Made by a program: the position numbers and the translations under genes
Assembly (NCBI GenBank): GCA_903952145.1
Contig: CAJBES010000242.1
Coordinates: 1,516 to 65,515 of the forward strand
Length of the DNA stretch: 64,000 bases
DNA from: an uncultured Opitutaceae bacterium
GTDB lineage: Bacteria; Verrucomicrobiota; Verrucomicrobiia; Opitutales; Opitutaceae
Direction of reading: 5' to 3'
Notes under the pieces: model-generated
What the model saw: only the letters and a program-made list of their open reading frames with translations
Told to the model about the DNA's origin: nothing
Database searches by the model: none
Part shown: positions 3,395-59,905 of the stretch, one piece after another
Layout: the number at the start of each line of letters is the position of its first letter
Position numbering within the stretch: the stretch's first letter is position 1

Positions 3395-3471
3395 TGGCGT
3401 CCCCACGGGGATTCGAACCCCGGTTCTCACCGTGAAAGGGTGGTGTCCTAACCGGGCTAGACGATGGGGAC
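3395..3471 (-). tRNA. tRNA-Glu (anticodon UUC), CCA encoded
   Basis: The minus strand reads GTCCCCATCGTCTAGCCCGGTTAGGACACCACCCTTTCACGGTGAGAACCGGGGTTCGAATCCCCGTGGGGACGCCA. It has a 7-bp acceptor stem, a CGGGG/CCCCG T-stem with a TTCGAAT loop, and a CTTTCAC anticodon loop. It is close to E. coli tRNA-Glu. Confidence 0.95.
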
Positions 3472-3677: not shown

Positions 3678-6098
3678 ATGCCAACGCCGTCCCCGGCCCC
3701 CGTCCTGTCCTCCAACCTGGTTGTCCGCGCCGGCTTCGGTGCGGATGATCTCGCCCCCGGCAGCCGGCTTTGTCCGCTGCCGCCCAAGACCGACTTCACG
3801 GCCAGCTGGATCTGGGTGCCGGAGCAGAGCGGCTATGAGCGGCGCAACAGCTACGCTTGGTTCCGCCGGACCTTCACCGCGTCCGGCGACCTCACGCTGC
3901 ACATCGCGGCGGACAGCACCTACGAACTCCATCTCGACGGCGCCCTCGTCGACCGCGGCACCGCCCCGGCCGAGGTTTCCTACAAGACTTTCGACACCCA
4001 CCGGCTCACGGTCGGCCCCGGCCGGCATGTGCTCGCCATCCTCGTGCACCATCTTGGCCAGCAATGCGCCACGGCCATGCGTTCGCGGCCGGGTTTGCTG
4101 GTGGAAATGACGTCCGCCGGCAGCGACCCGGTGATCTCCGACGCCAGCTGGAAGGTCCTGCCCGCGGCCGCCTACCAGCAATGGCTGCCCTGCATGATGT
4201 CGCACTTCGGGTTCTACGAAGTCTGCGACCACGCCAAGGTCCCGGCGGGCTGGACCACCCTTGCATGCGACGATGCCGCCTGGTCCGCGGCGGAGGTCAT
4301 CGGCCCGGCAGGCTGCGCTCCCTGGTCGCGGCTGATTCCCCGCGACATCCCGGCCCTCGCCACCGCCATCATCGCCGTGGAGCGCATTACGTCCCGCGGC
4401 AGCTACCAGACCGGCCCGATCGCCGAAACGGAAAAGGAGATCACCGTGGCGGTCGAGATGGCCACACGTATCCGCCGACCGGATCCGGCGGTGGCGACCG
4501 CGTTGCCGCTGGCCTTGGCCCAAGGCGCCGCCAGCGAGTTTGCCGTGGTCGATTTCGGCCGGGTCGTGACCGGGCACGTCCAACTGGAATTCACCGGCGC
4601 GCAGGCCGGCCAGAAGGTGGACATCGGTTACGACGAGATTCTGGACGCCGACGGCCGGCCCAACCCGCGGCGCACCTACGTGCATGCCGCCGACCGCGCC
4701 TTTCTGCGCGCCGGCCAGGGTGAGCTGCAGATTCACGGCGGCCGGGGCTTCCGCTTCCTCCTGCTCGATGTCGCCGCGGGTCTGGGCGGCCTGACGCTCA
4801 CGCGCGTCGCGGTGGCGGAGCGCACCTATCCGGTCGCCCGCACCGGCACCTTCCGCAGCTCCGATCCCGAGCTTGCGCACCTGTACGAGGTCGGGCTCAC
4901 GACCACGCGCCTTTGCCAGCTGGACAGCTATGTGGACTGCCCGTCGCGCGAGCGGGTCATGTGGATGGACATGACGGTGGAGGCGCAATGCAGCGTCTAC
5001 GGCTTTGGCGAAACCGCGCTGTGGCGCCATTGCCTCTACCTGTTTGCGCAAAATCCCTGCCGGGAAGGCGCCACCGCCGGCGCGATCAAGGGCTTCGCCC
5101 CCTGCGACTACGATCCGATGCTCGTGAGCTACACGCTCTACTACCTGATCTCGGTCGCGGATTTTCACCACCACAGCGGCGACCGGCCGGCGGCCGAAGC
5201 GCTGTTCCCGACCGTGTTGAAACAACTGGAGGTGATCGCACGCTTCACGACCCCCGAGGGGTTGATCAACGAGAAATGGCCGGGCTGGGGCACCTTCCTC
5301 GACTGGTCGGCCATGGACATCGGCGGCGTCTCCTCATGCAACAACGCCATCTACATCCGCGCCCACCGCGAGACCGCCCGGCTCGCGCGCGCCCTGGGTA
5401 TGGTCGACGTGGCCCGGGAACTGGAGGCCAGGGCGGTGAGCCTCGCCGAGGCCTATCGCCGCGCTTTCTGGTCCGCCGACGAAGGGCTCTTTGTCGACTC
5501 GCTTTACGACGGGAAGCCCAGCGCCGTCCGCAGCCAGCTGGCCAACGTCATGGCGGTCTGGGCCGGCGTCGTGCAGGGGCCGGAGGCGCGCACCCTGCTG
5601 GCCAAAATCATGGACGAGTCGCGCCTGCTCCCGATGACCGGCTGCAACCACCGCCTGAAGCCCGGCTTCACCTGCCAGACCGGCGGCCTCGTGCGGATCG
5701 GCACGCCCGGCTCGGGCTTCCTGCTCGTGCAGGTGCTGTTCGAGCTCGGCCTCGCCCGCGAGGCCATCGCCTATCTCAAGGCCAACTGGCTGCCGATCAC
5801 GCGCGGCGGGACCTACGCCGAGCATTTCGCCAACGACTACGACATCAGCTACTGCCATGGCTGGGGCGCGGGCGCCGTGGTACAACTGCCGGCATATGTC
5901 CTCGGCATCCGCCCGGTGGCCCCCGGCTGGCGGGAGATCGAGATCCGGCCGCAATGCGCCGGACTCGACTGGGCCGAGGGCACCGTCCCCACGCCGCACG
6001 GCGACATCACGGTCGTCTGGCGCAAGGTCGGCGGCGAGCCCAAGCTGGAGTATCAGGTGCCACCCGGGATCAAGGTGGTGCAAGCTGCTTTCCGGTAG
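3678..6098 (+). CDS. alpha-L-rhamnosidase family protein (GH78-like)
   Basis: 806 aa. The N-terminal block SWIWVPEQ...YAWFRRTFTASGDLTLHIAADSTYELHLDGALV is typical of the bacterial rhamnosidase N domain. The six-hairpin domain motif DCPSRERVMWMDM (DCP.RER.GW) is present. Confidence 0.8.
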   Translation: MPTPSPAPVLSSNLVVRAGFGADDLAPGSRLCPLPPKTDFTASWIWVPEQSGYERRNSYAWFRRTFTASGDLTLHIAADSTYELHLDGALVDRGTAPAEVSYKTFDTHRLTVGPGRHVLAILVHHLGQQCATAMRSRPGLLVEMTSAGSDPVISDASWKVLPAAAYQQWLPCMMSHFGFYEVCDHAKVPAGWTTLACDDAAWSAAEVIGPAGCAPWSRLIPRDIPALATAIIAVERITSRGSYQTGPIAETEKEITVAVEMATRIRRPDPAVATALPLALAQGAASEFAVVDFGRVVTGHVQLEFTGAQAGQKVDIGYDEILDADGRPNPRRTYVHAADRAFLRAGQGELQIHGGRGFRFLLLDVAAGLGGLTLTRVAVAERTYPVARTGTFRSSDPELAHLYEVGLTTTRLCQLDSYVDCPSRERVMWMDMTVEAQCSVYGFGETALWRHCLYLFAQNPCREGATAGAIKGFAPCDYDPMLVSYTLYYLISVADFHHHSGDRPAAEALFPTVLKQLEVIARFTTPEGLINEKWPGWGTFLDWSAMDIGGVSSCNNAIYIRAHRETARLARALGMVDVARELEARAVSLAEAYRRAFWSADEGLFVDSLYDGKPSAVRSQLANVMAVWAGVVQGPEARTLLAKIMDESRLLPMTGCNHRLKPGFTCQTGGLVRIGTPGSGFLLVQVLFELGLAREAIAYLKANWLPITRGGTYAEHFANDYDISYCHGWGAGAVVQLPAYVLGIRPVAPGWREIEIRPQCAGLDWAEGTVPTPHGDITVVWRKVGGEPKLEYQVPPGIKVVQAAFR

Positions 6099-6171
6099 GC
6101 TGGCCGGCCGACATGCAACCGTGGTCAGAAAAAGCTTCTCCCCGCCGCCCCTTTGCGTGCAAATCCCACCC

Positions 6172-7083
6172 ATGAACTTCGCTGCCATCGCCACCGCCCT
6201 GCCCGTCGAAGCCCGCACCTCCTTCACCGGCCTGCCGTTGCCGCTCCTCGCCTCCGGCAAGGTCCGCGAGATTTTCGATCTCGGCGACGCCCTCCTCCTC
6301 GTCGCCAGCGACCGCCTCTCCGCCTTCGACGTGATTATGCCCGACGGCATTCCCGGCAAGGGCATCATCCTCACCCAGATGAGCCTGTGGTGGTTTGCGC
6401 AGACCCGGCACCTCATCCAGAACCACCTGCTGCCCGATCAGGCCGGCGAGTTTGCCCGCCGCGGCCTGCATGACCGCGACCTCCAGCTCCGCAGCATGAT
6501 CGTCCGGAAACTCAAGCCCCTCACGATCGAATGCGTCGCCCGCGGCTACCTCATCGGCAGCGGCTGGAGTTCCTACCAAAAGTCGGGCGAGGTCTGCGGC
6601 ATCCGGCTCCCCGCCGGCCTCCGCCAGGCGGACAAACTTCCGGCCCCCATCTTCACCCCGACCACCAAGGCGCCCAAGGGCCAGCACGACCTGCCCATCA
6701 ACGACGCCCAGGGGGCCGCCACCATCGGCCCCGCGCTCTATGCGCAGGTCAAAGCGCTCAGCCTCGCGCTCTACTCGTTCGGTCACGACCGCGCGAAACA
6801 GGCCGGCATGATCCTCGCCGACACGAAATTTGAATTCGGCACCGACGCGGCGGGCCAGCTCTTCCTCATCGACGAAGTACTCACGCCCGACTCCTCCCGC
6901 TACTGGCCGGCCGGCGAATACCGGGCGGATTGCTCGCCCCCGAGCTACGACAAACAATTCGTCCGCGACCACCTCCTCGCCCTCAAGTGGAACCAGTCGC
7001 CGCCCGCGCCGCGGCTGCCCGCCGACGTCATCACGCGCACCCAGGAGAAATACCTCGCCGCGCTGCGCAACCTGATCGGCTGA
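6172..7083 (+). CDS. purC: phosphoribosylaminoimidazole-succinocarboxamide (SAICAR) synthase
   Basis: Starts at ATG 6172: MNFAAIATALP...GKVREIFDLGDALLLVASDRLSAFDVIMPDGIPGKG...CVARGYLIGSGW...ILADTKFEFG...LIDEVLTPDSSRYW. These are canonical long-form PurC motifs. Confidence 0.95.
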   Translation: MNFAAIATALPVEARTSFTGLPLPLLASGKVREIFDLGDALLLVASDRLSAFDVIMPDGIPGKGIILTQMSLWWFAQTRHLIQNHLLPDQAGEFARRGLHDRDLQLRSMIVRKLKPLTIECVARGYLIGSGWSSYQKSGEVCGIRLPAGLRQADKLPAPIFTPTTKAPKGQHDLPINDAQGAATIGPALYAQVKALSLALYSFGHDRAKQAGMILADTKFEFGTDAAGQLFLIDEVLTPDSSRYWPAGEYRADCSPPSYDKQFVRDHLLALKWNQSPPAPRLPADVITRTQEKYLAALRNLIG

Positions 7084-7107
7084 GGCGCCCAACCTAGGAG
7101 CCACCGC

Positions 7108-8145
7108 ATGTTCCAGCGCGTCACCCTGCGGGATATCGCCAAGGATGCCGGGGTGCATTTCACCACGGTCGGCCTCGCCCTGCGCAACGACCCGCGCGTC
7201 ACTCCCGCCACCGCCGCCAGGGTGCAGGCCTCCGCCCGTAAACTCGGCTACGCCCACGACGCCATGCTCTCCGCGCTGTCGCTCTACCGGCACCGCAATT
7301 CCCAGCGCTTCGCCGGCGTCATCGCCTATGTGGTCACCTACAGCCCGGAGCAGCTCAAGGCCAACCTCACCGAACAAGTCGTGGTGGCGGCCACCGCGGC
7401 GCACGCGCTGACGCACAATTTCCGGCTCGAATCCTTCCAAATCGACGCGCCCGAGATGACCGCGGAACGCCTGAGCAAGCTCCTGCGTGCCCGCGGCATC
7501 CAGGGGATGATCCTCGCTCCGCGCCTCCCCACGCCCGGCCCGATGCCCAACCTTGAGTGGGAGTACTTCTCCCCGGTCGCCATGGGGTTCTCGATCACCA
7601 ACCTCACCGTCCACCGGGTCTGCCCCTACCATACCCACAACGTGCGGGTGTGTCTCCGCCAGATGCGGACGCATGGCTACCGCCGCATCGGCCTGATTCT
7701 GCCGCGGGAAATCTACGAGCGCAACCGCGGCCACGTGCTCGGGGCCTACGCGGCCGAGCAATACCTGCTGCCCGAAACCGAACGGGTGACCCCGCTGTTC
7801 GTGCCCAACGCGCAGATCACCAAAGCCACCGTCGGCCAGTGGCTGCGCGACCAGCAGCTCGACGGCGTGATCCTGAGTTCCATGCCGCTGGAGATCATGG
7901 GTTTCATCCGGGAGCTGGGCTATCGCGTGCCGGACCAATTGGGCGTGGCGTTGATCTGCCTGTACGGCCAGACTGAAAACTTCGCCGGCATCGACGAACA
8001 CGTGGATCAGCTCGGCGAGAGCGCGGTCGACGCCGTGATCGGCATGATCGGCCGCAACGAAAAGGGTCTGCCGGCCCATCCGCACTACACCCTCATTGAA
8101 GGCAGCTGGGTGGAACGCCCGACGGTGCGCGCGCTGCCCGTTTAG
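7108..8145 (+). CDS. LacI-family transcriptional regulator
   Basis: N-terminal HTH VTLRDIAKDAGVHFTTVGLALRNDPRVTPATAARVQASARKLGY followed by a periplasmic-binding-protein-like sugar-binding fold. Colinear paralog of 26755..27798. Confidence 0.9.
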   Translation: MFQRVTLRDIAKDAGVHFTTVGLALRNDPRVTPATAARVQASARKLGYAHDAMLSALSLYRHRNSQRFAGVIAYVVTYSPEQLKANLTEQVVVAATAAHALTHNFRLESFQIDAPEMTAERLSKLLRARGIQGMILAPRLPTPGPMPNLEWEYFSPVAMGFSITNLTVHRVCPYHTHNVRVCLRQMRTHGYRRIGLILPREIYERNRGHVLGAYAAEQYLLPETERVTPLFVPNAQITKATVGQWLRDQQLDGVILSSMPLEIMGFIRELGYRVPDQLGVALICLYGQTENFAGIDEHVDQLGESAVDAVIGMIGRNEKGLPAHPHYTLIEGSWVERPTVRALPV

Positions 8146-8376
8146 CTCGGCCGCGTTGCAGGCCCGGTGGGACCACCCCGTGAGACCTCGCCACCGTCGC
8201 CACGGCTATCGCACTGGCCCACAGCTTGCGGAGCGACTCCGGCCAGATTGCGCCCTGAGCCTGGCCGGTGAACGCCTGAACAGGCTGCGGCGCGCTGGCG
8301 GACGAGAAATGTCTGGCAGCGTCGCGCCAGGTGGGCGAAACTCCGGGGTCGTTTCGTTCATCATCGCCTCCCGCCC

Positions 8377-10878
8377 GTGCGCTCCCCCCGACCTTATTGG
8401 CACCATTTTGCGGTCAATATCATCTCGCCGGCCATCCTGACGTTTGCGCTCTTTCTCGTCGTAATCTTTGCGGTCATCCTGCCGACGATGCGCAAAAACA
8501 TCGTCGAGCGCAAAAAGGAGATGATTCGGGAGTTGACCCAGGCGGCCTGTAGCGAACTGGCCAGCCTGCACGAACAGGAGCAACGCGGGATCTTGGATCG
8601 GGCGGCCGCCCAGGCCGCGGCGGCCGGGCGCATCCAGGCCATGCGTTACGGCGACGATGGGAAAGACTACTTTTGGATCTCCGATGCCCAGACGCGCATG
8701 GTGATGCATCCTTATCGGCCGGAACTCAACGGCCAGAGTCTGCTGGAGTATTCCGACCCGGCGGGGAAGAAGCTTTTTGTCGAGTTCACCAAGATCGTCC
8801 GGGCGCAGGGCGATGGCTATGTGGAATACCGCTGGCAATGGAAGGACGACGAGCGGCGGGTGGTGCCCAAGCTTTCCTACGTGAAAGGCTTTGCCCCGTG
8901 GGGTTGGATTGTCGGAACCGGCATCTACCTGGAGGACGTGCGGGCGGAAATCAGCCAGATGATCCGCCGGGTACTGCAGGTGGCGCTGGCGATTTCCGGT
9001 GTCATTGCGGTGCTGCTGGCCTACATCGCCAAGCAGGGCCTCGACCTTGAGCGCCGCCGCTGGGCCGCCGAGACGGCCCTGCGCGAATCGGAGGAAAAAT
9101 ACCGGTTGCTGGTGGAGGGCACGACGGAGGGGGTGCTGCTGGTGCTGCAAGACCGGCCGGTCTATGCGAACCGCACCCTGCTTGACCGGCTGGGTTATTC
9201 GGCCCGGGAGATAGAGGAGCTGCCCTTGGAACGAATCATCGCCGCGGTCGCCACCGGCGGGCCGGCCTCGTCGGAGCAGCGGGCGCGCATCACCGCCAAG
9301 AGCGGCGAAGTCACGGAGGTGCTGCTGACTTCCGCATCGGTGACGATCGGCGACAAGCGCGGGCAAATTCTCACCGTCAAGGAAGTGGCCGCCCGCCGCA
9401 AGACCGAGGAGACGTTTGCCCGCCTGCTGGCCGACCTGCAAAGCATGCTGCCGCTGGCCACGCGCTCGATCAAGGCCTCGCCGCTCAGCCTCGTCGTGTG
9501 TGAGCTGGATACCCCGATCCACCAGGCGGCCGCGGCCATGAGCCGGGCGAAATCCAGCGCCATTCTGGTGAAAGCGCCGTCCGGGGAGGCCATCGGCATC
9601 GTGACCGATCAGGATTTCCGCTCCCGGGTGCTGGCGACGGGGCGGAACCCCGCCCTGCCCGTCTCGTCGATCATGAGCGCACCGCTGGTGCAGATCGGGG
9701 ATCGCGCCCTGCTGTTCGAAGCCGCACGGCTCCTGCAAGAGCGCAACCTGCAGCATCTCGTGGTGACCGATGAACGGGGCAACGCGCTCGGGGTCCTGAC
9801 GGCGACCGAGGTGCTGCACGTGCAGCGGCACGCGGTGGCGATGGTGCTCAACGAAATCCAGGGGGCGGCTGCGCCCGAGGAATTGCGTGACAGCCGCGCC
9901 AAGCTGCCGGTGTTTGTGAAAGCCCTGCTGGAGAGCGGGGCGCGCGTGGAGAGCATCACCCGGATCATGACCACGGTGTCGGACGCCGTTGTGGTGCGGT
10001 TGCTCGCACTGGCCGAGGCCGAACTCGGCCCCCCGCCCACGGCGTATGCGTTTGTGGCGCTGGGCAGCGAAGCCCGGGAGGAACAGACGCTGGCCACCGA
10101 TCAGGACAACGCCCTGATCTACGCGGACGTCCCCCCTGAGCGGAGCGAGGCGGTCCGGGCCTATTTCCTGCGGCTGGGCGAAAAGGTGTGCGGTTGGCTC
10201 GATCTGGTCGGCTACCATCGCTGCAAAGGCGAAGTCATGGCGTGCAACCCAAAATGGTGCCAGCCGCTGGCGCAGTGGCGGCAGTATTTCACCGACTGTG
10301 TCCTGGCGGCCAATCCGCAGGATCTGCTGGACGTGAATGTCTTTTTCGACTTCCGCTGCGCCCATGGCGAAGCCGCCTACGTGGTCCAGTTGCGCCAGCA
10401 CCTCCAGCGGATCCTCGAGGGCGAGGGCAAGCACACCTTTTTCTTCCACCTCGCGCAGAGCACGCTGCAATTCCGTCCGCCCCGGGGGTTTTTTGGCAAC
10501 ATCCAGCTGGAAGCAGCCGGTGAACGGCCGGCGGCCTTCAACATCAAGGCGGCCATCATTCCGCTGGTGAATTTCGCACGGATCTATGCCTTGCAGCACG
10601 GATTCGCCGAGACGAACACGCTCGATCGGCTGCGCCGGCTGCGCGACCAGGGCCGGCTGGTGCCGTCGAGCCACGACGAACTGGCGCAGGCCTACACCAC
10701 GTTGATGCTGATGCGGCTCAGACACCAGGCGGCGCAGTGGAATCGCGGCGCGATGCCCGACAACTTCATCGACCTGCAGGAACTCACGCAGCTCGATCAG
10801 TCGGTCCTGAAGAAGGTGTTTGCCGACATCACCGTCTTCCAGGCGCGCCTGGAGACCGACTTTGCCCGTACGGCGTGA
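8377..10878 (+). CDS. membrane sensor protein: TM - sCache_2 - TM - PAS - CBS pair - DUF294 putative nucleotidyltransferase plus DUF294_C
   Basis: GTG start. TM1 is FAVNIISPAILTFALFLVVIFAVIL. Cache block: RYGDDGKDYFWISDAQTRMVMHPYRPELNGQSL...GDGYVEYRWQWKDD...KLSYVKGFAPWGWIVGTGIYLEDV. TM2 is VLQVALAISGVIAVLLAYI. PAS block: SEEKYRLLVEGTTEGVLL. Two CBS repeats (GIVTDQDF..., LVVTDERGNALGVLTATEV). Pol-beta-type NTase motif: FVALGSEAREEQTLATDQDNALIY. Confidence 0.85.
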   Translation: MRSPRPYWHHFAVNIISPAILTFALFLVVIFAVILPTMRKNIVERKKEMIRELTQAACSELASLHEQEQRGILDRAAAQAAAAGRIQAMRYGDDGKDYFWISDAQTRMVMHPYRPELNGQSLLEYSDPAGKKLFVEFTKIVRAQGDGYVEYRWQWKDDERRVVPKLSYVKGFAPWGWIVGTGIYLEDVRAEISQMIRRVLQVALAISGVIAVLLAYIAKQGLDLERRRWAAETALRESEEKYRLLVEGTTEGVLLVLQDRPVYANRTLLDRLGYSAREIEELPLERIIAAVATGGPASSEQRARITAKSGEVTEVLLTSASVTIGDKRGQILTVKEVAARRKTEETFARLLADLQSMLPLATRSIKASPLSLVVCELDTPIHQAAAAMSRAKSSAILVKAPSGEAIGIVTDQDFRSRVLATGRNPALPVSSIMSAPLVQIGDRALLFEAARLLQERNLQHLVVTDERGNALGVLTATEVLHVQRHAVAMVLNEIQGAAAPEELRDSRAKLPVFVKALLESGARVESITRIMTTVSDAVVVRLLALAEAELGPPPTAYAFVALGSEAREEQTLATDQDNALIYADVPPERSEAVRAYFLRLGEKVCGWLDLVGYHRCKGEVMACNPKWCQPLAQWRQYFTDCVLAANPQDLLDVNVFFDFRCAHGEAAYVVQLRQHLQRILEGEGKHTFFFHLAQSTLQFRPPRGFFGNIQLEAAGERPAAFNIKAAIIPLVNFARIYALQHGFAETNTLDRLRRLRDQGRLVPSSHDELAQAYTTLMLMRLRHQAAQWNRGAMPDNFIDLQELTQLDQSVLKKVFADITVFQARLETDFARTA

Positions 10879-10930
10879 GGCCGGATGATGAAACGACAAG
10901 CGCTCCAAGCCCCGGCCAGGGATTGACCCG

Positions 10931-11728
10931 ATGCGTGTCCTGATCCTCGGCGATGTGCATGGCCAGCACGGGAAACTCGCCGCCGCGCTACGGCAGGCGC
11001 AGGCGGACTACCGGATCGAGGCCGCGATCCAGGTGGGCGATTTCGGTTTCTACAAAAACCTGCTGGGGGCTGCCAGTGCCGGGCGGGTCCGCTATCCCGT
11101 GCCGCTGCACGCGATCGACGGCAATCACGAGGATCATGCGTGGCTGCGCCGCGCACGGTTGACCGGAGCGGCGCACAGCTGGGCGCGCGAGCTCAATCTG
11201 ATCTACCAGCCCCGCCCCTCGGTGGCCGTGCTGGGGGCCGCCAAGGTCGGTTTCCTCGGCGGGGCTTTGCACGTGGACCGGCCGCAAAAACACAATTGGC
11301 TGGGCGGTTTCCCGAACTACATCCTGCGCCGCCACCGGGAGCAGGCCGTCACCTTGTTCAACCGGGAGCGCCCCGAGCTCATCGTGACGCATTCCTGTCC
11401 CGCCCGCATCGGCCTCGGGATGCAGAGCACTGCGGCAATGCAGCCCGGCGTGGCGGAACACATCGTCGCGGCGGGATTTGATCCCGGGCCGGCGGACGAT
11501 TGCGGCGAAGTGGAGTTGAGCCGGCTCTGGTGCGAACTCGCCTACAAACCGCGGGCCTGGGTCTTTGGCCATTTTCACCGAGCGCACGAAGCCGTGATCG
11601 AGGGCACGCGATTTGTGGGCGTGAGCGACGAGCTCGATGGCCCCCATCGCCGGCTGGCGATTTGGGACACCGAGGAAAAAAAACTACTGCTGTGCCCCGC
11701 CGACCCGAGCGCCGGGAACCCCGGGTAA
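10931..11728 (+). CDS. calcineurin-like metallophosphoesterase
   Basis: All metallophosphoesterase signature blocks are present: LGDVHG, VGDFG, IDGNHEDH, THSCP, GHFH. It lies 52 nt downstream of the DUF294 gene on the same strand. Confidence 0.85.
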   Translation: MRVLILGDVHGQHGKLAAALRQAQADYRIEAAIQVGDFGFYKNLLGAASAGRVRYPVPLHAIDGNHEDHAWLRRARLTGAAHSWARELNLIYQPRPSVAVLGAAKVGFLGGALHVDRPQKHNWLGGFPNYILRRHREQAVTLFNRERPELIVTHSCPARIGLGMQSTAAMQPGVAEHIVAAGFDPGPADDCGEVELSRLWCELAYKPRAWVFGHFHRAHEAVIEGTRFVGVSDELDGPHRRLAIWDTEEKKLLLCPADPSAGNPG

Positions 11729-11782
11729 TGCCCCGCCTCGCGGCGCGCCCTCCCCCTGGCAGGAGTTGCGCCGCGGATACTG

Positions 11783-13708
11783 TCAGCCCGCAACGCAAGC
11801 CGGCTTTGCTTCGGGCCGCGGGGTCAGCAGTGAGACCACCACGAGGACCAGGAAGCCGAGGGGGATGGTGACGATGGCGGGCTGGCTAAAGGGGACGATG
11901 GCGTTGGCAGGATCGAGGCCGTAAACGTCCTTGTAAGCCTGTGCGCTCAGGAGAATCCAGCCCAGCGAGGCGATCATGCCCACGGTGATGGCGGCGGTGA
12001 TGCCCTGTTTGGTGGTGCGTTTCCAGAAGAGCAGCATCACCAGGGCGGGGAGGTTGGCGGAAGCCGCGATGTTGAAGGCCCAGCCGACCAGGAAATTGAC
12101 ATTCATCTTCTGGAACATGATGCCCAGGCAGATGGCCAGCGCGCCCACGCACAGCGCCGCGATCTTGGCCGAGCGCACTTTTTGGAAATCGTCCATTTTG
12201 ATCTTCAAAAAGTTGGTCATGAGGTCATGCGCCACCGCGCCGCTCGCGGCCATGATCAGACCGCTCACCGTGCCGAGCACGGTGGTAAAGGCCACGGCCG
12301 AGAGCACCGCGAAGAGCAGTTCGTTCAGACTGCGGGCCAGCAGCGGCGCCGACATGTTGGAATCCGTGACATCCAGCGCACCGCTGGTCATCGCGCCGAG
12401 GCCAAGGAAGAGCGTCAGCACATAGAAAAAGCCGATGGCGGCGATGCCCACCACTGTGCTCTTGCGGGCGCTGAGTTGGTCCTTGACCGTATAATACCGG
12501 ATCAAAATGTGCGGGAGCGACGCCGTGCCGCAAAACAGTGCCAGCATGAGCGAGAGGAAATCGAGTTTGTCGAAGAATTTCTCACTGCGCACCTTCTTGA
12601 AGGTCGGACTGGAGCCGGGGGCCATGAAATCGCTGCCTGGCGTGGGCTTCTGGTAATACACCGTCGTCATGCTGCCGTCAGCCTCGGCAACCTTATCCGA
12701 GCCCCACAGGATGACTTCGCTGTCCTGCATGGTGGTGATAAACGAGACCGGATTGAGCGGACCGGTCTTTTCGACGCCACCCGGCAGCTTGGAGGCATAG
12801 CCCACCGGCAGCAGGTCCGCTTCGCCCACCCCTTTGCCCCGCGGCCGTCCGTTGGCCAGTTTGCGCCCGTCTAGCAGCACGGTCAGGGTCTGGGCTTCGG
12901 AGAGCAAAGCGCCTTCCTTGCGCCAGACCGTCACCACCCCGGCGGCATCCTGCACGCGGACATAGGGCTTCCCCTGCCACGGGCCTTCCTCGGAGAGCAC
13001 CGTGCTGCCGGCCGCGTCCGTGACGGTGGCCGCGGGCACGCCGTGCCGGAGGATCTGCACCTCCTTGCCGTTGGCGTCGGTGGGCTTGGTGGTCACGCCG
13101 CGGAACATGAGCATGACGGTAATGGCCGCGCACAGCGCGACCAGCAGGCTGCCTTTGATGAATTGGACCCACGTGGTCGAAACCATGCCGGCGGTTGCGA
13201 CAATCGTAGTGACGATCAAACCCACGACGATCACACCCACGTAATGCGGAAAGCCCAGCAGCGGTTGCACCAGGGCGCCAGCGCCGACCATCTGCGGGAT
13301 CAGGTAGAAGCAGCTGACCACCAGCGTGCTGATGGCCGCCGCCAACTTGATGCCGCGGGAGTTGAACTTGTTGTCCAGCGCGTCGGCAAAAGTGAAACGT
13401 CCGAGGCGTTTCAGCGGTTCGGCGATGATGAACAGCGCCACGATCCACCCGGCCAGGTAACCGATCGAGTAGAGGAAGCCGTCGTAGCCGAAGAACGCGA
13501 TCATGCCGCAGATGCCGAGGAAAGAGGCCGCCGACAGGTAGTCGCCGGCAAACGCGATGCCGTTGACAAACCAATGAATGCCGCCACCGGCGGCGAAGTA
13601 GCCGCTGGCGGACTTGGCCCGCGCCCCCAGGTAGAAGCTGATGCCGATGACCGACCCGGCGAAAAACAAGAAGACTAGGACGGCGATCCAAGAAGTTGCG
13701 TGAATCAT
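11783..13708 (-). CDS. actP: sodium:solute symporter family, cation/acetate symporter ActP-like, with a large inserted loop
   Basis: 641 aa. N-terminal GYFAAGGGIHWFVNGIAFAGDYLSAASFLGICGMIAFFGYDGFLYSIGY, plus GTASLPHILIRYYTV, match ActP motifs. A hydrophilic segment of about 180 aa (residues ~203-381) separates the TM bundles. Confidence 0.85.
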   Translation of the reverse strand: MIHATSWIAVLVFLFFAGSVIGISFYLGARAKSASGYFAAGGGIHWFVNGIAFAGDYLSAASFLGICGMIAFFGYDGFLYSIGYLAGWIVALFIIAEPLKRLGRFTFADALDNKFNSRGIKLAAAISTLVVSCFYLIPQMVGAGALVQPLLGFPHYVGVIVVGLIVTTIVATAGMVSTTWVQFIKGSLLVALCAAITVMLMFRGVTTKPTDANGKEVQILRHGVPAATVTDAAGSTVLSEEGPWQGKPYVRVQDAAGVVTVWRKEGALLSEAQTLTVLLDGRKLANGRPRGKGVGEADLLPVGYASKLPGGVEKTGPLNPVSFITTMQDSEVILWGSDKVAEADGSMTTVYYQKPTPGSDFMAPGSSPTFKKVRSEKFFDKLDFLSLMLALFCGTASLPHILIRYYTVKDQLSARKSTVVGIAAIGFFYVLTLFLGLGAMTSGALDVTDSNMSAPLLARSLNELLFAVLSAVAFTTVLGTVSGLIMAASGAVAHDLMTNFLKIKMDDFQKVRSAKIAALCVGALAICLGIMFQKMNVNFLVGWAFNIAASANLPALVMLLFWKRTTKQGITAAITVGMIASLGWILLSAQAYKDVYGLDPANAIVPFSQPAIVTIPLGFLVLVVVSLLTPRPEAKPACVAG

Positions 13709-13717
13709 GGTGGTTCC

Positions 13718-13987
13718 TTATTTCGATTTGCGGCAGAGACGCATGTAGACCAGCGCCAGCACGAGCGCGGCGGCGATCAACGCAAAACCATAGACGACCG
13801 CGAGGTTGGCGCCGCCGGCAAAGGGCTTGCGCATCACCTCCGGCCAGAAGGCGCTGAGCGCCATGAAGCCGCCGTAAAAAACCACATAGATGGCAAACAA
13901 AACCAGCCCGATGCGTGTGTTGTGCGCGACGACCATCGCATCTTCCTGTTCACGAATTACCGGAGTCTTGAAATCAAGTGAAGCCAT
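13718..13987 (-). CDS. DUF485 (YjcH-like) small inner-membrane protein
   Basis: 89 aa with two TM helices (IGLVLFAIYVVFYGGFMAL, LAVVYGFALIAAALVLALVY). Sits 9 nt upstream of actP, the canonical yjcH-actP arrangement. Confidence 0.85.
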   Translation of the reverse strand: MASLDFKTPVIREQEDAMVVAHNTRIGLVLFAIYVVFYGGFMALSAFWPEVMRKPFAGGANLAVVYGFALIAAALVLALVYMRLCRKSK

Positions 13988-14005
13988 GGGGGTATTTTTT
14001 TAGGG

Positions 14006-15442
14006 TTAGAACTTGTAGGTGATCCCGAATTGCTGGCGCCAGTCGGTGCCAGGTGCGTTCACCTTGTAAGTGGTCTCCAGCCAGGAAAGTTCGAACGCCA
14101 GCTGCACCTGCGCGTTAAGCGAATAATGCACGTTGCCGAAGACGAGGGTGTTCTTGGTGCGGGCGTCCTTGGTGGAATCCCCATTCCCGCTCAGATCGTC
14201 GTCGTCCGGATTGTCCAGACCGGCGCCGAGGTTGAACTGCCACAACGCGGAGGGAGTCAGTGTGACCGAGGCCCAGCCGCCGACAGTGTCGATTTCCCGG
14301 TTCAGGGTGAGGTTGACGCCCTGACCGATGCCGCCGAGGTGGGAGTCGAAATTGCGTCCTTGGAAAGCTTCGGCCTGCAACAGCAGCGTCGGGCTGAGCG
14401 GCAGGCGCAGGTCGGCATTGATCGACCAAGTCTCGAAGGTGTCACTCCCACCCAGATTGGTGCGATGAATCTCTTCGGACCCAAGGTGCCCCGAAACCCC
14501 GATGGTGGCCACCTGTTTGGGTGCGATCGGAAAACTCAGGCCGGCCCGGCCTGCGAACGTGGGATACCCGCCGTCGGCGCCGGTATCGGGGTCGTTGGCA
14601 GTCGCAAAGACCGCCTTGCGGCCGGTGATGGTGCGGCTGATGCCGCCGTCGAGTTTCAGATCCACGCCTTCATCGATGTCGATGCTCTTGACCAGTCGCA
14701 GTTGCGGCCGCCGGTAGCCGACGTTGCCCTGCCACCAGGCGACGCTGTAGTTGACGGTGGTCGGATTCAGGGGGGAGATGATGTCCGAGGTCTGACCTGC
14801 GATGAGGGCCAGCTTGCGCAACGGCCAGTCCATGCGCACAAAGGCGTGGCGCAGCATTGGTTCGGGTTTGTTTTCCGCGACGCCGGCCCCGTAGAAATCG
14901 ATCTCGATTTTGCCGGTGGCCTGAAAACTCGCAGTCGTGGGGCCGGTGGCGTCCACGCCCAGCCGGGTCTGGTTGGCGGTGAGGTTGAAGTGATGGTCGT
15001 TCATGAGCACACTTTCCGACTCCATCCAGCGCGCGAAATTGCCGAGCGAGGTCCGGGAATCGTCGAAGGCGGCATCCAGTTTCACGTAGCCGTAGAAATT
15101 GAGGTCCAGGCCGGAGCGCGCCGGCTGGCCCTTCAGACCGGCGAGCGACTTGAGCTTGGCGGTCTCGGCCTCCGTGAAGCCTGAAGCGGTGGCGGGCCGG
15201 GCGGAAGGGGCCGCGGGTGGCGTGGCGGATGCGACCGCGGTAGGACCGGCGGCAGGCGCCAGCATTTTCTTGATCGCGGCGAGGTCCCGCTCGACGCTTT
15301 CGAGTCGCTGCTGCAATTCGGCGTTCTGGCGCTTCAGCGCTTCTACGTCCTCTGTAGCGACCAGCGCCTTCGGGCCCAAGCCCAGGCCGATGGCAATGGC
15401 CAGCGTGAAAAAGACCGATCGCCTGGTTGTTTTCGAAGTCAT
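14006..15442 (-). CDS. outer-membrane porin with an N-terminal coiled coil (DcaP-like)
   Basis: Start chosen at MTSKTTRRSVFFTLAIAIGLGLG (signal-like). Then a coiled coil, EDVEALKRQNAELQQRLESVERDLAAIKKML, and a Pro/Ala linker. The rest is an alternating beta-strand pattern ending in FGITYKF (C-terminal Phe). Confidence 0.7.
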   Translation of the reverse strand: MTSKTTRRSVFFTLAIAIGLGLGPKALVATEDVEALKRQNAELQQRLESVERDLAAIKKMLAPAAGPTAVASATPPAAPSARPATASGFTEAETAKLKSLAGLKGQPARSGLDLNFYGYVKLDAAFDDSRTSLGNFARWMESESVLMNDHHFNLTANQTRLGVDATGPTTASFQATGKIEIDFYGAGVAENKPEPMLRHAFVRMDWPLRKLALIAGQTSDIISPLNPTTVNYSVAWWQGNVGYRRPQLRLVKSIDIDEGVDLKLDGGISRTITGRKAVFATANDPDTGADGGYPTFAGRAGLSFPIAPKQVATIGVSGHLGSEEIHRTNLGGSDTFETWSINADLRLPLSPTLLLQAEAFQGRNFDSHLGGIGQGVNLTLNREIDTVGGWASVTLTPSALWQFNLGAGLDNPDDDDLSGNGDSTKDARTKNTLVFGNVHYSLNAQVQLAFELSWLETTYKVNAPGTDWRQQFGITYKF

Positions 15443-15984
15443 GCTTTCCTTCCTTCTCGCGAGCTTTTTAGGGGGAACTGACGGGGTAAGATCCGCTAAG
15501 ACCGTGAAATACATTAGGTAAACGGCGGTTGGAGAACCGGATTCTGCCCGAGGGTGGCGCTATGAAGTGGCGCTAATGCAGTGTATTCGTTCGTGGCGGG
15601 CTTTGGATAGCTGGTTCATCCGCCTGCGGTGGCCGTGTCTTTTGGCCACCGCTCCCGGTATCACGGGAGAGCATCTGGCCTGACTCGAATATAGAGGATG
15701 CGGCGTGGCACTCCCTCGCAACGGTCCCCAAGGCTCCGACCTGGCCCAAGCCAAGTTGGCTGGAATGCCAGCACCCGAGGACCTGCGAGTGCGCTGCGGA
15801 TCATTGCCTCTATTTGCTGCCCGGCGAGGAGACGGCGCACTGCGTCACCTCGCTCCTGCGCCTCAACGAGCGCGGGCTGCCGTGTTTCCCGCACTACTCG
15901 CTGGTCGAAAGCCCGTGGGTGGATGGCCCACGGTCCGTGCCGTGCTCACGGATCAACGCACCTGCTCCCCGTCACGCCGCCGGG

Positions 15985-18519
15985 TCAGGGTGCGGTCGAC
16001 CGCCCCTGGCGGGCCTGTTCCGCCTGGATCTCGGCGCGGTGCGCCTGCTGCCATTCGTAGATCGAGCGCACGGCGGGCTGCGGGCGTTCGCTCTCGCCGG
16101 AAGTGCGGATGCGGTTGCCGCGCTCCAAGGCGGGAGGAATCGCACCGGCGACCAGCTTGGTGACCGGCCCATAGAAATGATTGTCGATCAGTTCGATTCC
16201 CGTGCAGTCGGCCGAGCCGAGATAGATCGCCGCGGGTTGCGGATCCAACAGCACGAAGACATTGCCTTGGATGAGGTGGTCGAAACTTGCGGTCTTGGCC
16301 ACGACCCCCGGGCCCCGGCCCGCGACAAAGCGGTTGTGGAGGATGAGCCACGACTCGTTCATGCCGCCCATCCAGAGCCCCGCCTTCGGGGAGGAGATGC
16401 TGCAGTTGTAGACCACGTTGCGCGGCCCGTTGGGACCATGGCCGCCATCCTCGGGCGGCGACGCCCACATGCCGTTGCCATAGGCGCCGTCGCGCTGGCT
16501 GGACTCCACGATCAACTCCTCGTAGAGGTTTTCGTTGGTCCAGCCGGCGTGCCACTGGGCATCGCTGCCATGGAACACACTTTGGCGGATCACATTGCCC
16601 GAGGAAGCCCACTGCACCACCGGCGCATGCCGCATGGCATAGGTGGTCACGTTCGTCATCAGGCAGTCGAAGGAATGCTCCCAACCGATGTAGCCGGAAC
16701 CGCCGATGTTATACCACACGCGGTCGAAGACCGAGTCGCGCACCTCACAGCGTTTCGAGTGGGGCATGTAGAGGGATTTGTCGCCGGCGCGGACCAGCTC
16801 GACGCCCCGCATCCAGCACTCCCAGCCATATTCGAACATGACGCCGTGGATCATCGCCTGCACCTCCTGCTCAAACCCGAGATCCTCCACGCCGCAATGC
16901 ACCTGGGCGCGCAGCCGCTGCACGGAGGAACCGTCGATGACGGGGAACTCCAGCCGCAGCGCCTCGCCAATCCAGACCCGGTCCCCCTCAACGCGGTTGA
17001 TCTCGTAGTGGTTGGTGCGGTTCTGCGCACCCTTGCGCGCCGTCTCAATCAGCGCCTCCCAACGCGGGGTGCAGGGCGCACTGAGCTGAATCCGGTCGCC
17101 GGCGGCCAACCCATGGCCCGGGGCCAGCTTCAGGCTCAGGTCACCGCGCCGGCCGTCGGCCGCGAGCGGGATGCGCCCGCCCACCAGGCCCCGGCCGGCA
17201 AAGGCGATCACCGCCAGCGAGCCGTGGGCGCGCGCCAAGGGAACCGCCGCGTCCAGTTGCACCTGCCGGGCCTCGGTTCGCACCGTGCCGTCGCGATAGG
17301 TGGCGCTGACCTTGAGCTCGGCCGAGCCCGGACCGACCGCCGGGGCCAGGTCGCCGGCGTTGAAACGGAAAAATATCTGGGTTTCCCAACGGCCGGACCG
17401 GGCGATCCGCTGCACGGACTTGCCCCCGGCAGTGATCTCCACCCCGGTCAGACCCTCGGGGTCAAGCCAGACATAGTAAAACCCCTGCGGATGAATTTTC
17501 CCGTCGGCGGGGATGCCGTGCAATTCCGGCGGCTCGCCCCGTTTTGAAAAGCGGGAGACCAGCCTCGTCTTTTGGGCCCCGGCGCCGCGCAGCACGATGT
17601 TGTCGCCTTTGATGACAATCGGACGGTCCAGCAGATAGCGGCCGGCCGGGATGAAGAGTCCCCCGCCTTCGGCCTTTGCCTCCAAGGCTTCGATCGCTTT
17701 TTGCAGTGCCGCAGAGTCGTCATTCCCGTCGTCGGGCACGGCGCCGTAATCAGCGGCGGAGACCGTATTTGCGCGGACCGGGATGCCGCCAGGAATGCCC
17801 ACGCGCGTCCAGTTCGGGTAGGCGATCCCGTCGGGCCCCAGCACATCCGCCGCGGTCAGCTTCGCTTTTTCTCCGGCGCGGATCCGGTAGGTGCCAGGCC
17901 AGGGCGGTGCCGTGCGGCCGGTCTCAAGCTTCTGGCCCTCGTGTTCCCGGGTCAGGTCAAGGTAGGTGCGCAGGTCCCAGTCGGCCGGACGCATGGCATG
18001 GGCCGACTGCTCCGCCACTAGGTTGCCCGCCTGGTCGTAAACCTGCAGCAGACAGAAGAGCGGCACCTCCGCCGCCGGCACACTCCTGCGCTGCGCGTAG
18101 GTGATGACGCCGGCTTGGGGCGTGACCGTGAAATCAAAACTTAGCACGCGGCGGTTGCCCACCTCGCGGTTGATGCACACCTCCTTCGCGACCGTCTCTC
18201 CGTTGAGCACAATGTCGAAGATCCGGCGCAAGGGGTCGCTCATCGCCATTTCGGTGTAGGCCAGATGCACCCGGTAAGGCTCGGCCCCGAGGCCCGACAC
18301 CCGCAGGCCGATCTCACCGGTGCACCAAGTCTGGTAGATATGCTGGAGTTCCTCGGGGACGCCCTCCACTTCCGACTCGTAGTGCCGGTGAGTAAACTTC
18401 GGCTCTCCCAGCACCGTCACGACCACCGGACGGTGGGTGGGCACACCTGTCGGCGACCCAGCCTGCACGAAACTAACCAGACACATCTGAGCAACCAGGG
18501 CCAGCAAACGGGGTTTCAT
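15985..18519 (-). CDS. secreted malectin-domain plus right-handed beta-helix (pectate-lyase-3 / GH28-related) protein
   Basis: Signal peptide MKPRLLALVAQMCLVSFVQA. Malectin-like block: YRVHLAYTEMAMSDPLRRIFDIVLNGETVAKEV. Pectate_lyase_3-like block: ADYGAVPDDGNDDSAALQKAIEALEAKAEGGGLFIPAGRYLL. Confidence 0.75.
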   Translation of the reverse strand: MKPRLLALVAQMCLVSFVQAGSPTGVPTHRPVVVTVLGEPKFTHRHYESEVEGVPEELQHIYQTWCTGEIGLRVSGLGAEPYRVHLAYTEMAMSDPLRRIFDIVLNGETVAKEVCINREVGNRRVLSFDFTVTPQAGVITYAQRRSVPAAEVPLFCLLQVYDQAGNLVAEQSAHAMRPADWDLRTYLDLTREHEGQKLETGRTAPPWPGTYRIRAGEKAKLTAADVLGPDGIAYPNWTRVGIPGGIPVRANTVSAADYGAVPDDGNDDSAALQKAIEALEAKAEGGGLFIPAGRYLLDRPIVIKGDNIVLRGAGAQKTRLVSRFSKRGEPPELHGIPADGKIHPQGFYYVWLDPEGLTGVEITAGGKSVQRIARSGRWETQIFFRFNAGDLAPAVGPGSAELKVSATYRDGTVRTEARQVQLDAAVPLARAHGSLAVIAFAGRGLVGGRIPLAADGRRGDLSLKLAPGHGLAAGDRIQLSAPCTPRWEALIETARKGAQNRTNHYEINRVEGDRVWIGEALRLEFPVIDGSSVQRLRAQVHCGVEDLGFEQEVQAMIHGVMFEYGWECWMRGVELVRAGDKSLYMPHSKRCEVRDSVFDRVWYNIGGSGYIGWEHSFDCLMTNVTTYAMRHAPVVQWASSGNVIRQSVFHGSDAQWHAGWTNENLYEELIVESSQRDGAYGNGMWASPPEDGGHGPNGPRNVVYNCSISSPKAGLWMGGMNESWLILHNRFVAGRGPGVVAKTASFDHLIQGNVFVLLDPQPAAIYLGSADCTGIELIDNHFYGPVTKLVAGAIPPALERGNRIRTSGESERPQPAVRSIYEWQQAHRAEIQAEQARQGRSTAP

Positions 18520-42100: not shown

Positions 42101-42426
42101 CCTACGTGGTCGCCGCCCGCGCCAAGGGCGTGCGACCCCTCAGGCTCCTGCTGAAATACCCCGTGCGCATGGCCCTCAATCCCTTCGTCTCCGGCCTGGC
42201 CGGGCTCTTCCCCCAACTCGTTTCCGGCGGCGCCATCGTCGCCCTCGTCCTCAGCCTGCCGACGGTCGGCCCCCTACTGATGCTTGGGCTCATGAATGAG
42301 GATACCTATTTCGCCGCCTCGATGCTCATGGTCCTCAGCGTCCTCGGCGTGCTTGGCACAATTGTCAGCGACCTGCTCCTGCTCTGGCTCGACCCCCGCA
42401 TCCGCCTCGGAGGTGGCAGCCGATGA
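39106..42426 (+). CDS. fusion protein: membrane-anchored family-5 (Dpp/Opp-type) substrate-binding domain plus DppB/OppB-like ABC permease
   Basis: 1106 aa. N-terminal TM FIAGCLGAVLGMTLLIVAAGAFF. SBP_bac_5-like body: LVRWSPQGYPIVPHLAKSWSASPDRRTWTFTLRQGLRWSDGHPFTTDD. Extra TM LLAWGIWLGAILGLVLLGL (about 41338-41397). Then a complete permease from FVWRRLLTLVPTLLFISVIVFTLVQLPPGDY (41401) onward. Confidence 0.85.
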   Translation: MPRPLPLPFKFIAGCLGAVLGMTLLIVAAGAFFRPDLSQVPPMPSAAQAAAARQARDARLNPDHPPVIWRDVDYAEGKRGAWWPKGEAPVLAGLVREGKLPPVAERTGPEPIVLEGVEGTGRYGGTWHRLATNPQDLEGVMSSRYSYVTLVRWSPQGYPIVPHLAKSWSASPDRRTWTFTLRQGLRWSDGHPFTTDDILFWWNHEVLYFKSDASNGAGADYTFMRHAGKFGRIERVDDLTLRFVFDEPNGIFLEKLASAVDYFRPAHYLKKYHPEIGDQKLIAETMAAMDLPSAYAVYARMKVPLNPAHPRMWPWIYANYKASAPQVFVRNPYFYAVDAQGNQLPYLDRLVSDIKSKGMVTAAAASGELSYQDRHIDFQDYTLLASEAPRRGYRLLHSFAASRAWFHLSPNLNRAVDPSKPETAWKHRLLNEKTFRQALSLAMRRREISAAVFNGVGEPAQVSPGPDSPYYNERQYHAFTDYDPVRANALLDALGLIKRDHEGFRTFPDGTRMVWFLNVPEEYQPDAATMLADQWAEVGVRALVQVRVRTLWQVEQAALVHDFTVWGGLDEFMAVLQPRYFVPVSGASFFAPMWGRWYQRGGLQGNPEARAAGLEGPPPGHPARRAMELYDLALIAPTEKERLARFNEILEIAADNLWTINLATPPPMLAVVKDGFRNVPPNSVAAVCFQAPGNLGMETYFWDTPNDPPAVAAQIKEALTQPVLLPRASGGRTAGDALPWSGRLLAWGIWLGAILGLVLLGLRHPFVWRRLLTLVPTLLFISVIVFTLVQLPPGDYVTSKVMELSLNGDPSAAAQVEDIKQSFFYDDPPWKQYARWMGFMWFTSFEAQDSGLLQGNLGRSMERNQAVNEILGDRLLLTMAISFCTILFTWGVALPIGIYSAVRPYTVGDYVLTLLGFVGMSVPPFLFALVLMYFSSEYFGVSVSGLFSVRYASDPVWSWGKLIDLLQHLWVPVIVLGAGSTAVMIRVLRANLLDELKKPYVVAARAKGVRPLRLLLKYPVRMALNPFVSGLAGLFPQLVSGGAIVALVLSLPTVGPLLMLGLMNEDTYFAASMLMVLSVLGVLGTIVSDLLLLWLDPRIRLGGGSR

Positions 42427-59847: not shown

Positions 59848-59905
59848 CCCCCGCCCAAGCCGATTTGTAACGCCCTACGTTGCAAACCGCCCGGGCAACA
59901 TTCCC

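Follow-up and report, generated by a model that had tools for sequence, protein, structure and literature searches.

What does a bacterium convey with a protein that places a receptor domain outside the cytoplasmic membrane and a nucleotidyltransferase (NTase) domain inside it, and what does the phosphoesterase encoded directly behind that protein contribute? The question is raised by two genes in a 64,000-nucleotide stretch of DNA from an uncultured Opitutaceae bacterium (contig CAJBES010000242.1), here called the window. The first gene (8377..10878, + strand) encodes an 833-amino acid sensor with the order TM1–sCache_2–TM2–PAS–CBS pair–DUF294–DUF294_C, where TM1 and TM2 are transmembrane (TM) segments, and the second (10931..11728, + strand) encodes a calcineurin-like metallophosphoesterase (MPE) of 265 amino acids, recognized by Pfam Metallophos. 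An earlier note, made from the sequence, had described both open reading frames (ORFs) and the domain order, and these are borne out by the ORF list and by the Pfam and NCBIfam profile scans that the note had asked for. The sensor–MPE pair is one version of a widespread, already known but functionally uncharacterized gene pair. Our tentative reading, plausible but far from assured, is that it forms a two-gene signaling module for extracellular short-chain monocarboxylates that works by reversible nucleotidylylation, with the MPE as the remover.

Conservation and domain composition of the pair

When the MPE alignment was scanned against one genome per species, 70 loci (L001-L070) were recovered, all in metagenome-assembled genomes (MAGs) and none in a cultured isolate, from Verrucomicrobiota, Lentisphaerota/Kiritimatiellia, Planctomycetota, Acidobacteriota, Myxococcota, Bdellovibrionales, and Elusimicrobiota. 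In 63 of the 70, the ORF immediately upstream of the MPE on the same strand encodes a DUF294 sensor, and these paired loci span MAGs of Verrucomicrobiota, Lentisphaerota/Kiritimatiellia, Planctomycetota, Acidobacteriota, Myxococcota, and Bdellovibrionota. Because the pairing recurs to this extent among independently assembled loci, it is not due to chance, and the linkage on which the earlier note had made its idea depend is conserved. The sensor stop codon and the MPE start are 52 nt apart in the window and mostly −4 to +10 nt apart in the related loci, which indicates that sensor and MPE are co-translated. A Cache-type N-terminus is present in every full-length sensor (52/52). The 833-amino acid sensor has a 100% identical protein in public metagenomes, where the arrangement LacI–sensor–MPE facing ActP–DUF485–porin is found as an identical locus on many contigs, and the homologues carry Opitutaceae or Verrucomicrobiota labels.

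Seven MPE loci have no DUF294 sensor. The MPE of L005 adjoins another SSF symporter, that of L047 has as neighbors just a DUF1538 protein and a family-2 glycosyltransferase, and the genes flanking the MPE in L061, L065, and L070 have no Pfam matches. In the two others, both from Planctomycetota MAGs and with MPEs of 43% identity, the gene lies in a Thg1–MPE–Macro series of overlapping genes (L064, 7215-9345) and in an RlaP–RlaP–MPE series (L067, 8287-10792). Among the 70, L069 looks degraded, with fragmented matches, and the bin labels Eisenbacteria, NC10, Paceibacterota, and Accumulibacter are odd for proteins that are 72-77% identical to Verrucomicrobiota proteins, a discordance suggesting that some bins may be mislabeled.

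The input half of the sensor, like all of its features encoded on the + strand, begins with TM1 (amino acids 10-43; 8404..8505; Kyte-Doolittle mean 2.77 over 19 residues), which is followed by the sCache_2 domain (amino acids 44-197; 8506..8967; Pfam PF17200, 5e-40) and TM2 (amino acids 195-222; 8959..9042; hydropathy 2.46). As these hydrophobic stretches flank the Cache domain, the latter should be extracytoplasmic and everything beyond residue 222 cytoplasmic, beginning with a PAS domain (amino acids 236-345; 9082..9411) and a CBS pair (approximately amino acids 373-488; 9493..9840; Pfam CBS in two stretches, 2e-14). The PAS assignment is weak yet reproducible (TIGR00229, 8e-7; PAS_8 over amino acids 240-287, 2.6e-4), and the CBS pair is backed by PDB CBS-pair matches over amino acids 366-490 as well as by Foldseek CBS-pair matches.

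The nearest solved relatives of the Cache domain in a PDB sequence search are Adeh_3718 (4K08, E 1e-36), which was crystallized with acetate, and PscD (5G4Y, E 3e-31), to which glycolate, acetate, propionate, and pyruvate bind according to isothermal titration calorimetry; the pocket residues were taken from the same sources (PMC5062169, PMC3831638). The PscD contacts Y90, W92, H103, F126, Y143, W145, and K156 correspond to Y98, W100, H111, F134, Y151, W153, and K165 here, and all seven residues of this predicted carboxylate pocket are invariant in the 52 full-length sensors. Since the seven residues are identical and the closest solved relatives bind carboxylates, the sensor is strongly predicted to bind C2-C3 monocarboxylates, and the statement in the earlier note that the sCache_2 domains of several chemoreceptors bind such ligands holds for 4K08 and 5G4Y and would extend, through the seven contact residues, to this protein. 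The top NCBIfam match of the sensor is the kinase MctS, which is the sensor of a system for monocarboxylate transport. As in Adeh_3718, PscD, and McpP, the sCache_2 domain sits between two TM helices and presents the same seven ligand-contact residues, but the output in the window is an NTase rather than a methyl-accepting chemotaxis protein signaling domain or, as in MctS, a histidine kinase, and ligand binding here is predicted.

That output consists of a DUF294 NTase of the Pol-beta type (amino acids 510-647; 9904..10317; Pfam PF03445, 9e-47) and DUF294_C, a helical 'substrate-binding' domain (amino acids 687-829; 10435..10863; Pfam PF10335, 1e-42). The NTase residues G563-S564, D575-x-D577, and the third carboxylate D658, which sits just past the end of the DUF294 domain, are invariant in the 52 sensors and in alignment A2, and the degeneracy of the GS…D.D motif that the earlier note had considered is not seen. 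The DUF294_C domain falls in the KNTase_C clan together with the C-terminal domains of GlnD and GlnE (PMC3710099). An AlphaFold model of amino acids 355-833 (pLDDT 82) has as its top Foldseek match the N-terminal domain of GlnE (1V4A, 1e-8), alongside DrrA bound to Rab8a (6YX5_B, 1.8e-8, TM-score 0.70 on the target) and the C-terminal adenylylation domain of GlnE (3K7D, 1.9e-8), with CBS pairs next. By sequence, Pfam reports only DUF294 and DUF294_C for this output half and no GlnE or GlnD_UR_UTase membership, and a PDB search with the sensor returns no GlnE, GlnD, or DrrA match. Judged by the structural model, the nearest characterized relatives of the DUF294 NTase appear to be the protein AMPylases GlnE and DrrA. 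As in GlnD, GlnE, and DrrA/SidM, a Pol-beta NTase is followed by a helical KNTase_C-clan domain, and the logic of GlnD and DrrA would also be alike, in that a sensor-regulated NTase is opposed by a metal-dependent hydrolase, which is the HD domain within GlnD that removes uridine monophosphate and the PP2C-like SidD in the case of DrrA. Unlike GlnD, the input here is made up of Cache, PAS, and CBS domains instead of ACT domains, and the presumed hydrolase is a protein of its own, the MPE.

The MPE (Pfam Metallophos, 1e-10; Metallophos_2, 5e-9) retains the complete set of metal-ligand motifs (D8-x-H10, G-D37, G-N65-H66, H154, and G-H214-x-H216), the ligands being conserved in 62 of the 63 sensor-paired MPEs, and it has in addition the invariant family-specific motifs GGALHxDRPQ and DCGE. 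It contains no TM segment and therefore should be cytoplasmic, as the NTase is. The family is strongly constrained, with a mean column identity of 75% across classes. It is also small: of 1.84 billion representatives, 57 match at E<=1e-30, and the 90% clusters contain 416 matches. The AlphaFold2 model (pLDDT 78.8) is matched best in Foldseek by Dbr1 (E 4e-9, TM-score 0.62, 17% identity), and further matches are aq_1956, SbcD/Mre11, GpdQ, LpxH, and Rv0805 (rank 16th or lower), which are phosphodiesterase/nuclease-type MPEs rather than protein phosphatases. With Dbr1, Mre11/SbcD, GpdQ, and Rv0805/CpdA it shares the MPE fold and the full binuclear-metal motif set (E 4e-9 to 3e-6, TM-score 0.5-0.64), but just 12-17% identity, and neither profiles nor a close structural match place it specifically in the CpdA/Rv0805 or Dbr1 families. 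A PDB search by sequence gives no significant match and NCBIfam no family, and the plasmid collection contains no homologue of the MPE family, the only hit being one 27%-identical Bacillus MPE. Fusions of MPE and sensor are absent among 150 representative MPE homologues; the sole long one, P0341 (824 amino acids), was considered as a fusion and rejected, as it contains no sensor domains.

Partners of DUF294 nucleotidyltransferases

The better-known form of the gene pair is the COG2905 type, represented by the P. aeruginosa PA3233/PA3232 region, P. putida PP_0354/PP_0353, and P. fluorescens Pflu5625, whose proteins have the same CBS–DUF294–DUF294_C core and are ~29-38% identical to the window protein in the NTase region. 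In these systems, likewise, a phosphodiesterase gene abuts the NTase gene, and ActP/DUF485 or DUF4212/SSS genes are often nearby. The annotated P. aeruginosa record reads DUF485–actP–cNMP/CBS/DUF294–3'-5' exonuclease (cNMP, cyclic nucleotide monophosphate) with a 4-nt overlap, and that of Paracoccus reads acs–DUF4212–SSS–DUF294…exonuclease, so that the statement in the earlier note on COG2905 genes near a DEDDh exonuclease and acs/actP agrees with both. An acetate context is not a restriction, since DUF294–exonuclease pairs are also found in sugar-utilization clusters of Vibrio pelagius and Hymenobacter. In these two cases, a Hymenobacter plasmid (L071) and a V. pelagius plasmid (L072), the pair lies in polysaccharide/uronate clusters with LacI/KdgR adjacent and no SSS nearby. 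The COG2905-type pair has been called uncharacterized up to 2026 (PMC5715377, PMC9927547, bioRxiv 10.64898/2026.09.07.749794), with PP_0353/PP_0354 listed as function unknown in the last of these, a September 2026 preprint.

The two forms differ both in what they would sense and in the partner that they keep. The COG2905 input is a cytoplasmic cNMP-binding domain, for which the window sensor has no cNMP_binding match, whereas the window input is a periplasmic sCache_2 domain between two TM segments together with PAS; and the COG2905 partner is a DEDDh exonuclease, whereas the window partner is an MPE. In tblastn searches with four partner exonucleases, neither the window nor any of the 70 MPE loci gave a DEDDh exonuclease match, MPE and exonuclease thus being mutually exclusive. 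These observations support the proposal made in the earlier note that a Cache domain replaces the cNMP domain and a phosphoesterase the exonuclease. In distribution the window-type pair is found in MAGs of the PVC group, Acidobacteriota, and Myxococcota, and the COG2905 type in Proteobacteria and Bacteroidota.

The note had also called for a co-occurrence analysis of DUF294 partners, and for this a further 80 DUF294 loci were gathered in a metagenome scan with alignment A4, a narrower alignment that was taken because the broader A3 was too divergent for a locus scan, and were classed by tblastn and Pfam. Exonucleases go with cNMP sensors, and MPE, PHP, or HD-GYP partners go with Cache sensors. 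Among cNMP sensors, 19 loci have a DEDDh exonuclease and seven with complete flanks have no detected partner. Among Cache sensors, four loci have an MPE of the window family downstream, five an MPE of a different family upstream, three a PHP domain, and two a GAF–HD-GYP protein with the motif HHERYDGSGYP, and four with complete flanks have no detected partner. In two of the PHP cases the domain, whose N-terminal motifs are DxHxHS…SDG…LTDH, forms the N-terminal part of a fusion with the Cache–PAS–CBS–DUF294 protein (L129:3709-6972, 1087 amino acids; L144:516-3821, 1101 amino acids), with a predicted topology that makes both PHP and NTase cytoplasmic, and in the third it is encoded by a separate gene 8 nt upstream of the sensor (L140:249-980). 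The GAF–HD-GYP genes lie immediately upstream of their Cache-type sensors (L143:2223-3395 and L149:2864-4030), and as these two are related (64% identity), the HD-GYP pairing may have arisen just once.

That four unrelated folds of metal-dependent phosphodiesterases occupy one slot, together with the fusion, points to a conserved system of two activities, an NTase and a phosphodiester hydrolase. This replacement of partners is the strongest comparative argument that the NTase is accompanied by a hydrolase of its own product, and it lends comparative support, at the level of sequence, to the writer/eraser pair that the earlier note had suggested. It also yields a testable hypothesis, in which the NTase would form a phosphodiester product and the partner would hydrolyze it. 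In full-text literature searches, neither Cache-type DUF294 sensors nor the fusion nor partners of the MPE, PHP, or HD type were mentioned, and the partner-replacement pattern is, as far as we could check, a new observation.

A different arrangement is seen in L096, L097, and L101 (~4480-7000), in which DUF294 proteins of 484-489 amino acids with no Cache or cNMP match follow a succinyl-CoA ligase alpha-like gene (CoA_binding + Ligase_CoA), and this short DUF294 form is another tie to acyl-CoA/organic-acid metabolism.

A possible route from external carboxylate to uptake

The sensor and MPE genes converge on a porin–DUF485–ActP operon, and 54 nt separate the MPE stop from the end of the ActP-like gene. 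That gene (11783..13708, − strand; SSF, 1e-70) encodes a 641-amino acid ActP/MctC-like Na+/monocarboxylate symporter that scores 409 bits with the MctC model (3e-122; cut-off 670) and 393 bits with the ActP subfamily model (2e-117; cut-off 750), each match being split in two stretches by an insertion of ~155 amino acids. It is preceded in the operon by a small membrane protein of the DUF485 family (YjcH-like; 13718..13987, − strand; Pfam, 2e-12) and, as the first gene, by a DcaP-like outer-membrane porin (14006..15514, − strand; Pfam DcaP, 6e-8), for which the public gene call has its start at 15442 (478 amino acids) instead of 15514. An ActP/MctC-like SSS is encoded within ~3 kb of 55 of the 63 pairs, 41 of these being long ActPs (>=55% identical) that mostly come with DUF485, and 14 belonging to a second ActP/MctC-like clade; most of the eight pairs without a nearby SSS are on truncated contigs. 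The transporter genes occur in four arrangements, convergent as in the window in 35 loci and divergent or co-directional in others, and in one Verrucomicrobiae MAG the order sensor–MPE–DUF485–ActP is consecutive. That the linkage outlasts such rearrangement argues for a functional tie. A DcaP-like porin is also present in ~10 related loci.

The insertion in the symporter (amino acids 203-357; 12638-13102, − strand) matches no Pfam family. It recurs in L075 and, in a longer form, in L129, both of whose ActPs are encoded beside Cache-DUF294 sensors, and it is absent in P. aeruginosa ActP and in the second SSS clade (L053, L022). A count of hydrophobic segments suggests that it is periplasmic.

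On the tentative reading given at the outset, the periplasmic sCache_2 domain would bind acetate, glycolate, propionate, or pyruvate, as its identical pocket implies, and the signal would pass through TM2 to the PAS domain and the CBS pair, the latter probably contributing adenine-nucleotide/energy status. PAS and CBS would then govern the cytoplasmic NTase, which has a GlnE/DrrA-like fold and intact catalytic residues, and which would transfer a nucleoside monophosphate (NMP) to an acceptor hydroxyl. The acceptor is most likely a protein, since the nearest structural relatives are protein AMPylases, and a plausible target may lie within the co-conserved ActP/DUF485 uptake system or in acetate assimilation. 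The translationally coupled MPE would cleave the phosphodiester and so reset the switch, in parallel with the HD domain of GlnD and with SidD versus DrrA, and would have the function that the DEDDh exonuclease has beside the cytoplasmic DUF294 proteins of the cNMP type in Proteobacteria. The net outcome would be a rapid control of monocarboxylate uptake and use by external supply. In P. putida, loss of the exonuclease impairs growth on pyruvate, as in ΔactP-I, and loss of the NTase does not (PMC9927547). By our reasoning rather than that of the authors, this asymmetry would be expected if the writer is inhibitory and the hydrolase erases its mark. Cofitness also ties COG2905 genes to a DUF4212 symporter (bioRxiv 10.1101/072470).

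Several observations weigh against this proposal. The resemblance to GlnE and DrrA in Foldseek is moderate (TM-score ~0.5-0.7, 12-15% identity), and full-text literature searches found no biochemical characterization of any DUF294 protein. The best-known members of the partner folds (HD-GYP, TrpH-like PHP, DEDDh, and Dbr1/Mre11/Rv0805-like) act on nucleotides or nucleic acids and not on proteins, and genes for more remote relatives of the MPE adjoin Thg1, RlaP, and Macro genes in operons that look like RNA-repair ones. The DUF294–exonuclease pairs that are Bacteroidota-like or from V. pelagius have no SSS neighbor, and ActP therefore cannot be a universal target. Finally, the four Cache-type and seven cNMP-type loci with complete flanks have no adjacent phosphoesterase.

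The nucleotide-directed chemistry of these partner folds counts in favor of the main rival, in which external carboxylate would prompt the DUF294 NTase to produce a diffusible nucleotide signal, be it an oligonucleotide (linear or cyclic) or a small molecule to which an NMP is attached. The MPE would be the phosphodiesterase for this signal, comparable to a sensor-GGDEF protein with EAL or HD-GYP. Second-messenger cyclases typically have inputs of the Cache–TM–PAS kind; HD-GYP enzymes act as phosphodiesterases on c-di-GMP/cGAMP, and the HHERYDGSGYP motif of the GAF–HD-GYP partner was read directly; TrpH-like PHP enzymes are pAp/nanoRNA hydrolases. Small nucleotides are hydrolyzed by HD-GYP, Orn-like DEDDh, TrpH-like PHP, and Rv0805-like MPE enzymes alike, some MPEs (Rv0805, GpdQ) being phosphodiesterases, and the PHP–sensor–NTase fusion resembles GGDEF–EAL hybrids, the joining of synthase and hydrolase being typical of second-messenger enzymes. 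A diffusible signal would also account for DUF294 pairs in varied contexts with no fixed neighbor, and the P. putida asymmetry is equally compatible with it. We nevertheless consider a second messenger unlikely, as the structures nearest to the NTase and its C-domain are protein AMPylases and not CD-NTases, OAS, or cyclases, and as no candidate receptor domain was seen; nor was a riboswitch or leader found near the operon in the Rfam scan of the 64-kb window, whose sole match is a tRNA (3398-3471, − strand). PADLOC gives no significant match for the sensor or the MPE, so that there is no CBASS-type signal, and a CBASS-like anti-phage role was rejected on the same grounds.

A weaker alternative, which we regard as improbable, is that the NTase extends the 3' end of an mRNA, small RNA, or tRNA that governs transporter expression and that the partner trims or heals this end. 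The nuclease-type partners fit such a role, both the RNase T-like DEDDh exonuclease (PMC9927547) and PHP, as does the ranking of the RNA debranching enzyme Dbr1 as the top structural match of the MPE, followed by SbcD/Mre11, and Price et al. speculated that symporter expression requires COG2905 (bioRxiv 10.1101/072470). The NTase model, however, is GlnE/DrrA-like rather than like a CCA-adding enzyme or a poly(A) polymerase, and the Rfam scan detects no conserved structured RNA at the locus. The Thg1–MPE–Macro and RlaP–RlaP–MPE operons, which would count in favor as RNA-repair contexts, involve MPEs that are just 43-47% identical and NTases of different families. We know of no precedent for a membrane-anchored RNA-tailing enzyme. 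It is also conceivable that the MPE does not reverse the NTase at all, being instead a helper in the same pathway, for example in pyrophosphate removal or substrate preparation, or an unrelated housekeeping enzyme of the operon. Antagonism is a prediction, and some DUF294 sensors have no adjacent phosphoesterase, but we consider this explanation very improbable, given that the tight coupling (−4 to +10 nt) is conserved across phyla, that the small MPE family is nearly always beside the sensor (63/70 loci), that the slot is taken elsewhere by three other phosphodiesterase folds and a fusion, and that the opposite phenotypes of the P. putida mutants point to a specific, probably opposing, partnership.

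In its most general form, the idea of reversible signaling would be that DUF294 NTases with interchangeable DEDDh, MPE, PHP, and HD-GYP partners constitute a widespread, unrecognized signaling chemistry, wired here to an extracellular acetate receptor and controlling monocarboxylate uptake without a transcription factor; we hold this generalization to be possible but doubtful. That chemistry would amount either to a new nucleotide second messenger or to a new reversible cycle of protein nucleotidylylation. If the hypothesis of an NTase and a hydrolase of its phosphodiester product is borne out, bacterial nutrient sensing would gain a new nucleotide signal or a new reversible protein modification, and the tuning of short-chain fatty-acid uptake in uncultured Verrucomicrobiota and their relatives would be explained. 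DUF294/COG2905 proteins are common in bacteria, and those of Pseudomonas rank with the genes that depend most strongly on the acetate two-component system. With a predictable ligand (acetate and other C2-C3 carboxylates) and a defined partner, the pair in the window can be approached experimentally in ways that are not open for the cytoplasmic forms.

Genes surrounding the pair

Upstream of the sensor lies a LacI regulator (7108-8145), which was considered as a part of the module and rejected, as it is not kept beside the pair in the 70 loci; LacI/KdgR genes are sporadic next to other DUF294 pairs. Promoter and terminator scans of positions 7000-16500 gave nothing beyond shuffled expectation. 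Polysaccharide-degradation genes are abundant around the pair and encode a rhamnosidase-like glycoside hydrolase (3678-6098), a malectin and pectate-lyase-like beta-helix protein (15985-18519), and a melibiase-like glycoside hydrolase (59714-62317), and the window also holds LacI and DeoR regulators and a TonB-dependent receptor. Such polysaccharide-degrading surroundings fit an Opitutaceae-like lifestyle. Farther downstream, a single ORF of 1106 amino acids (39106-42426, + strand) combines SBP_bac_5 and BPD_transp_1 and is either a fused binding protein/permease or two genes that have been merged.

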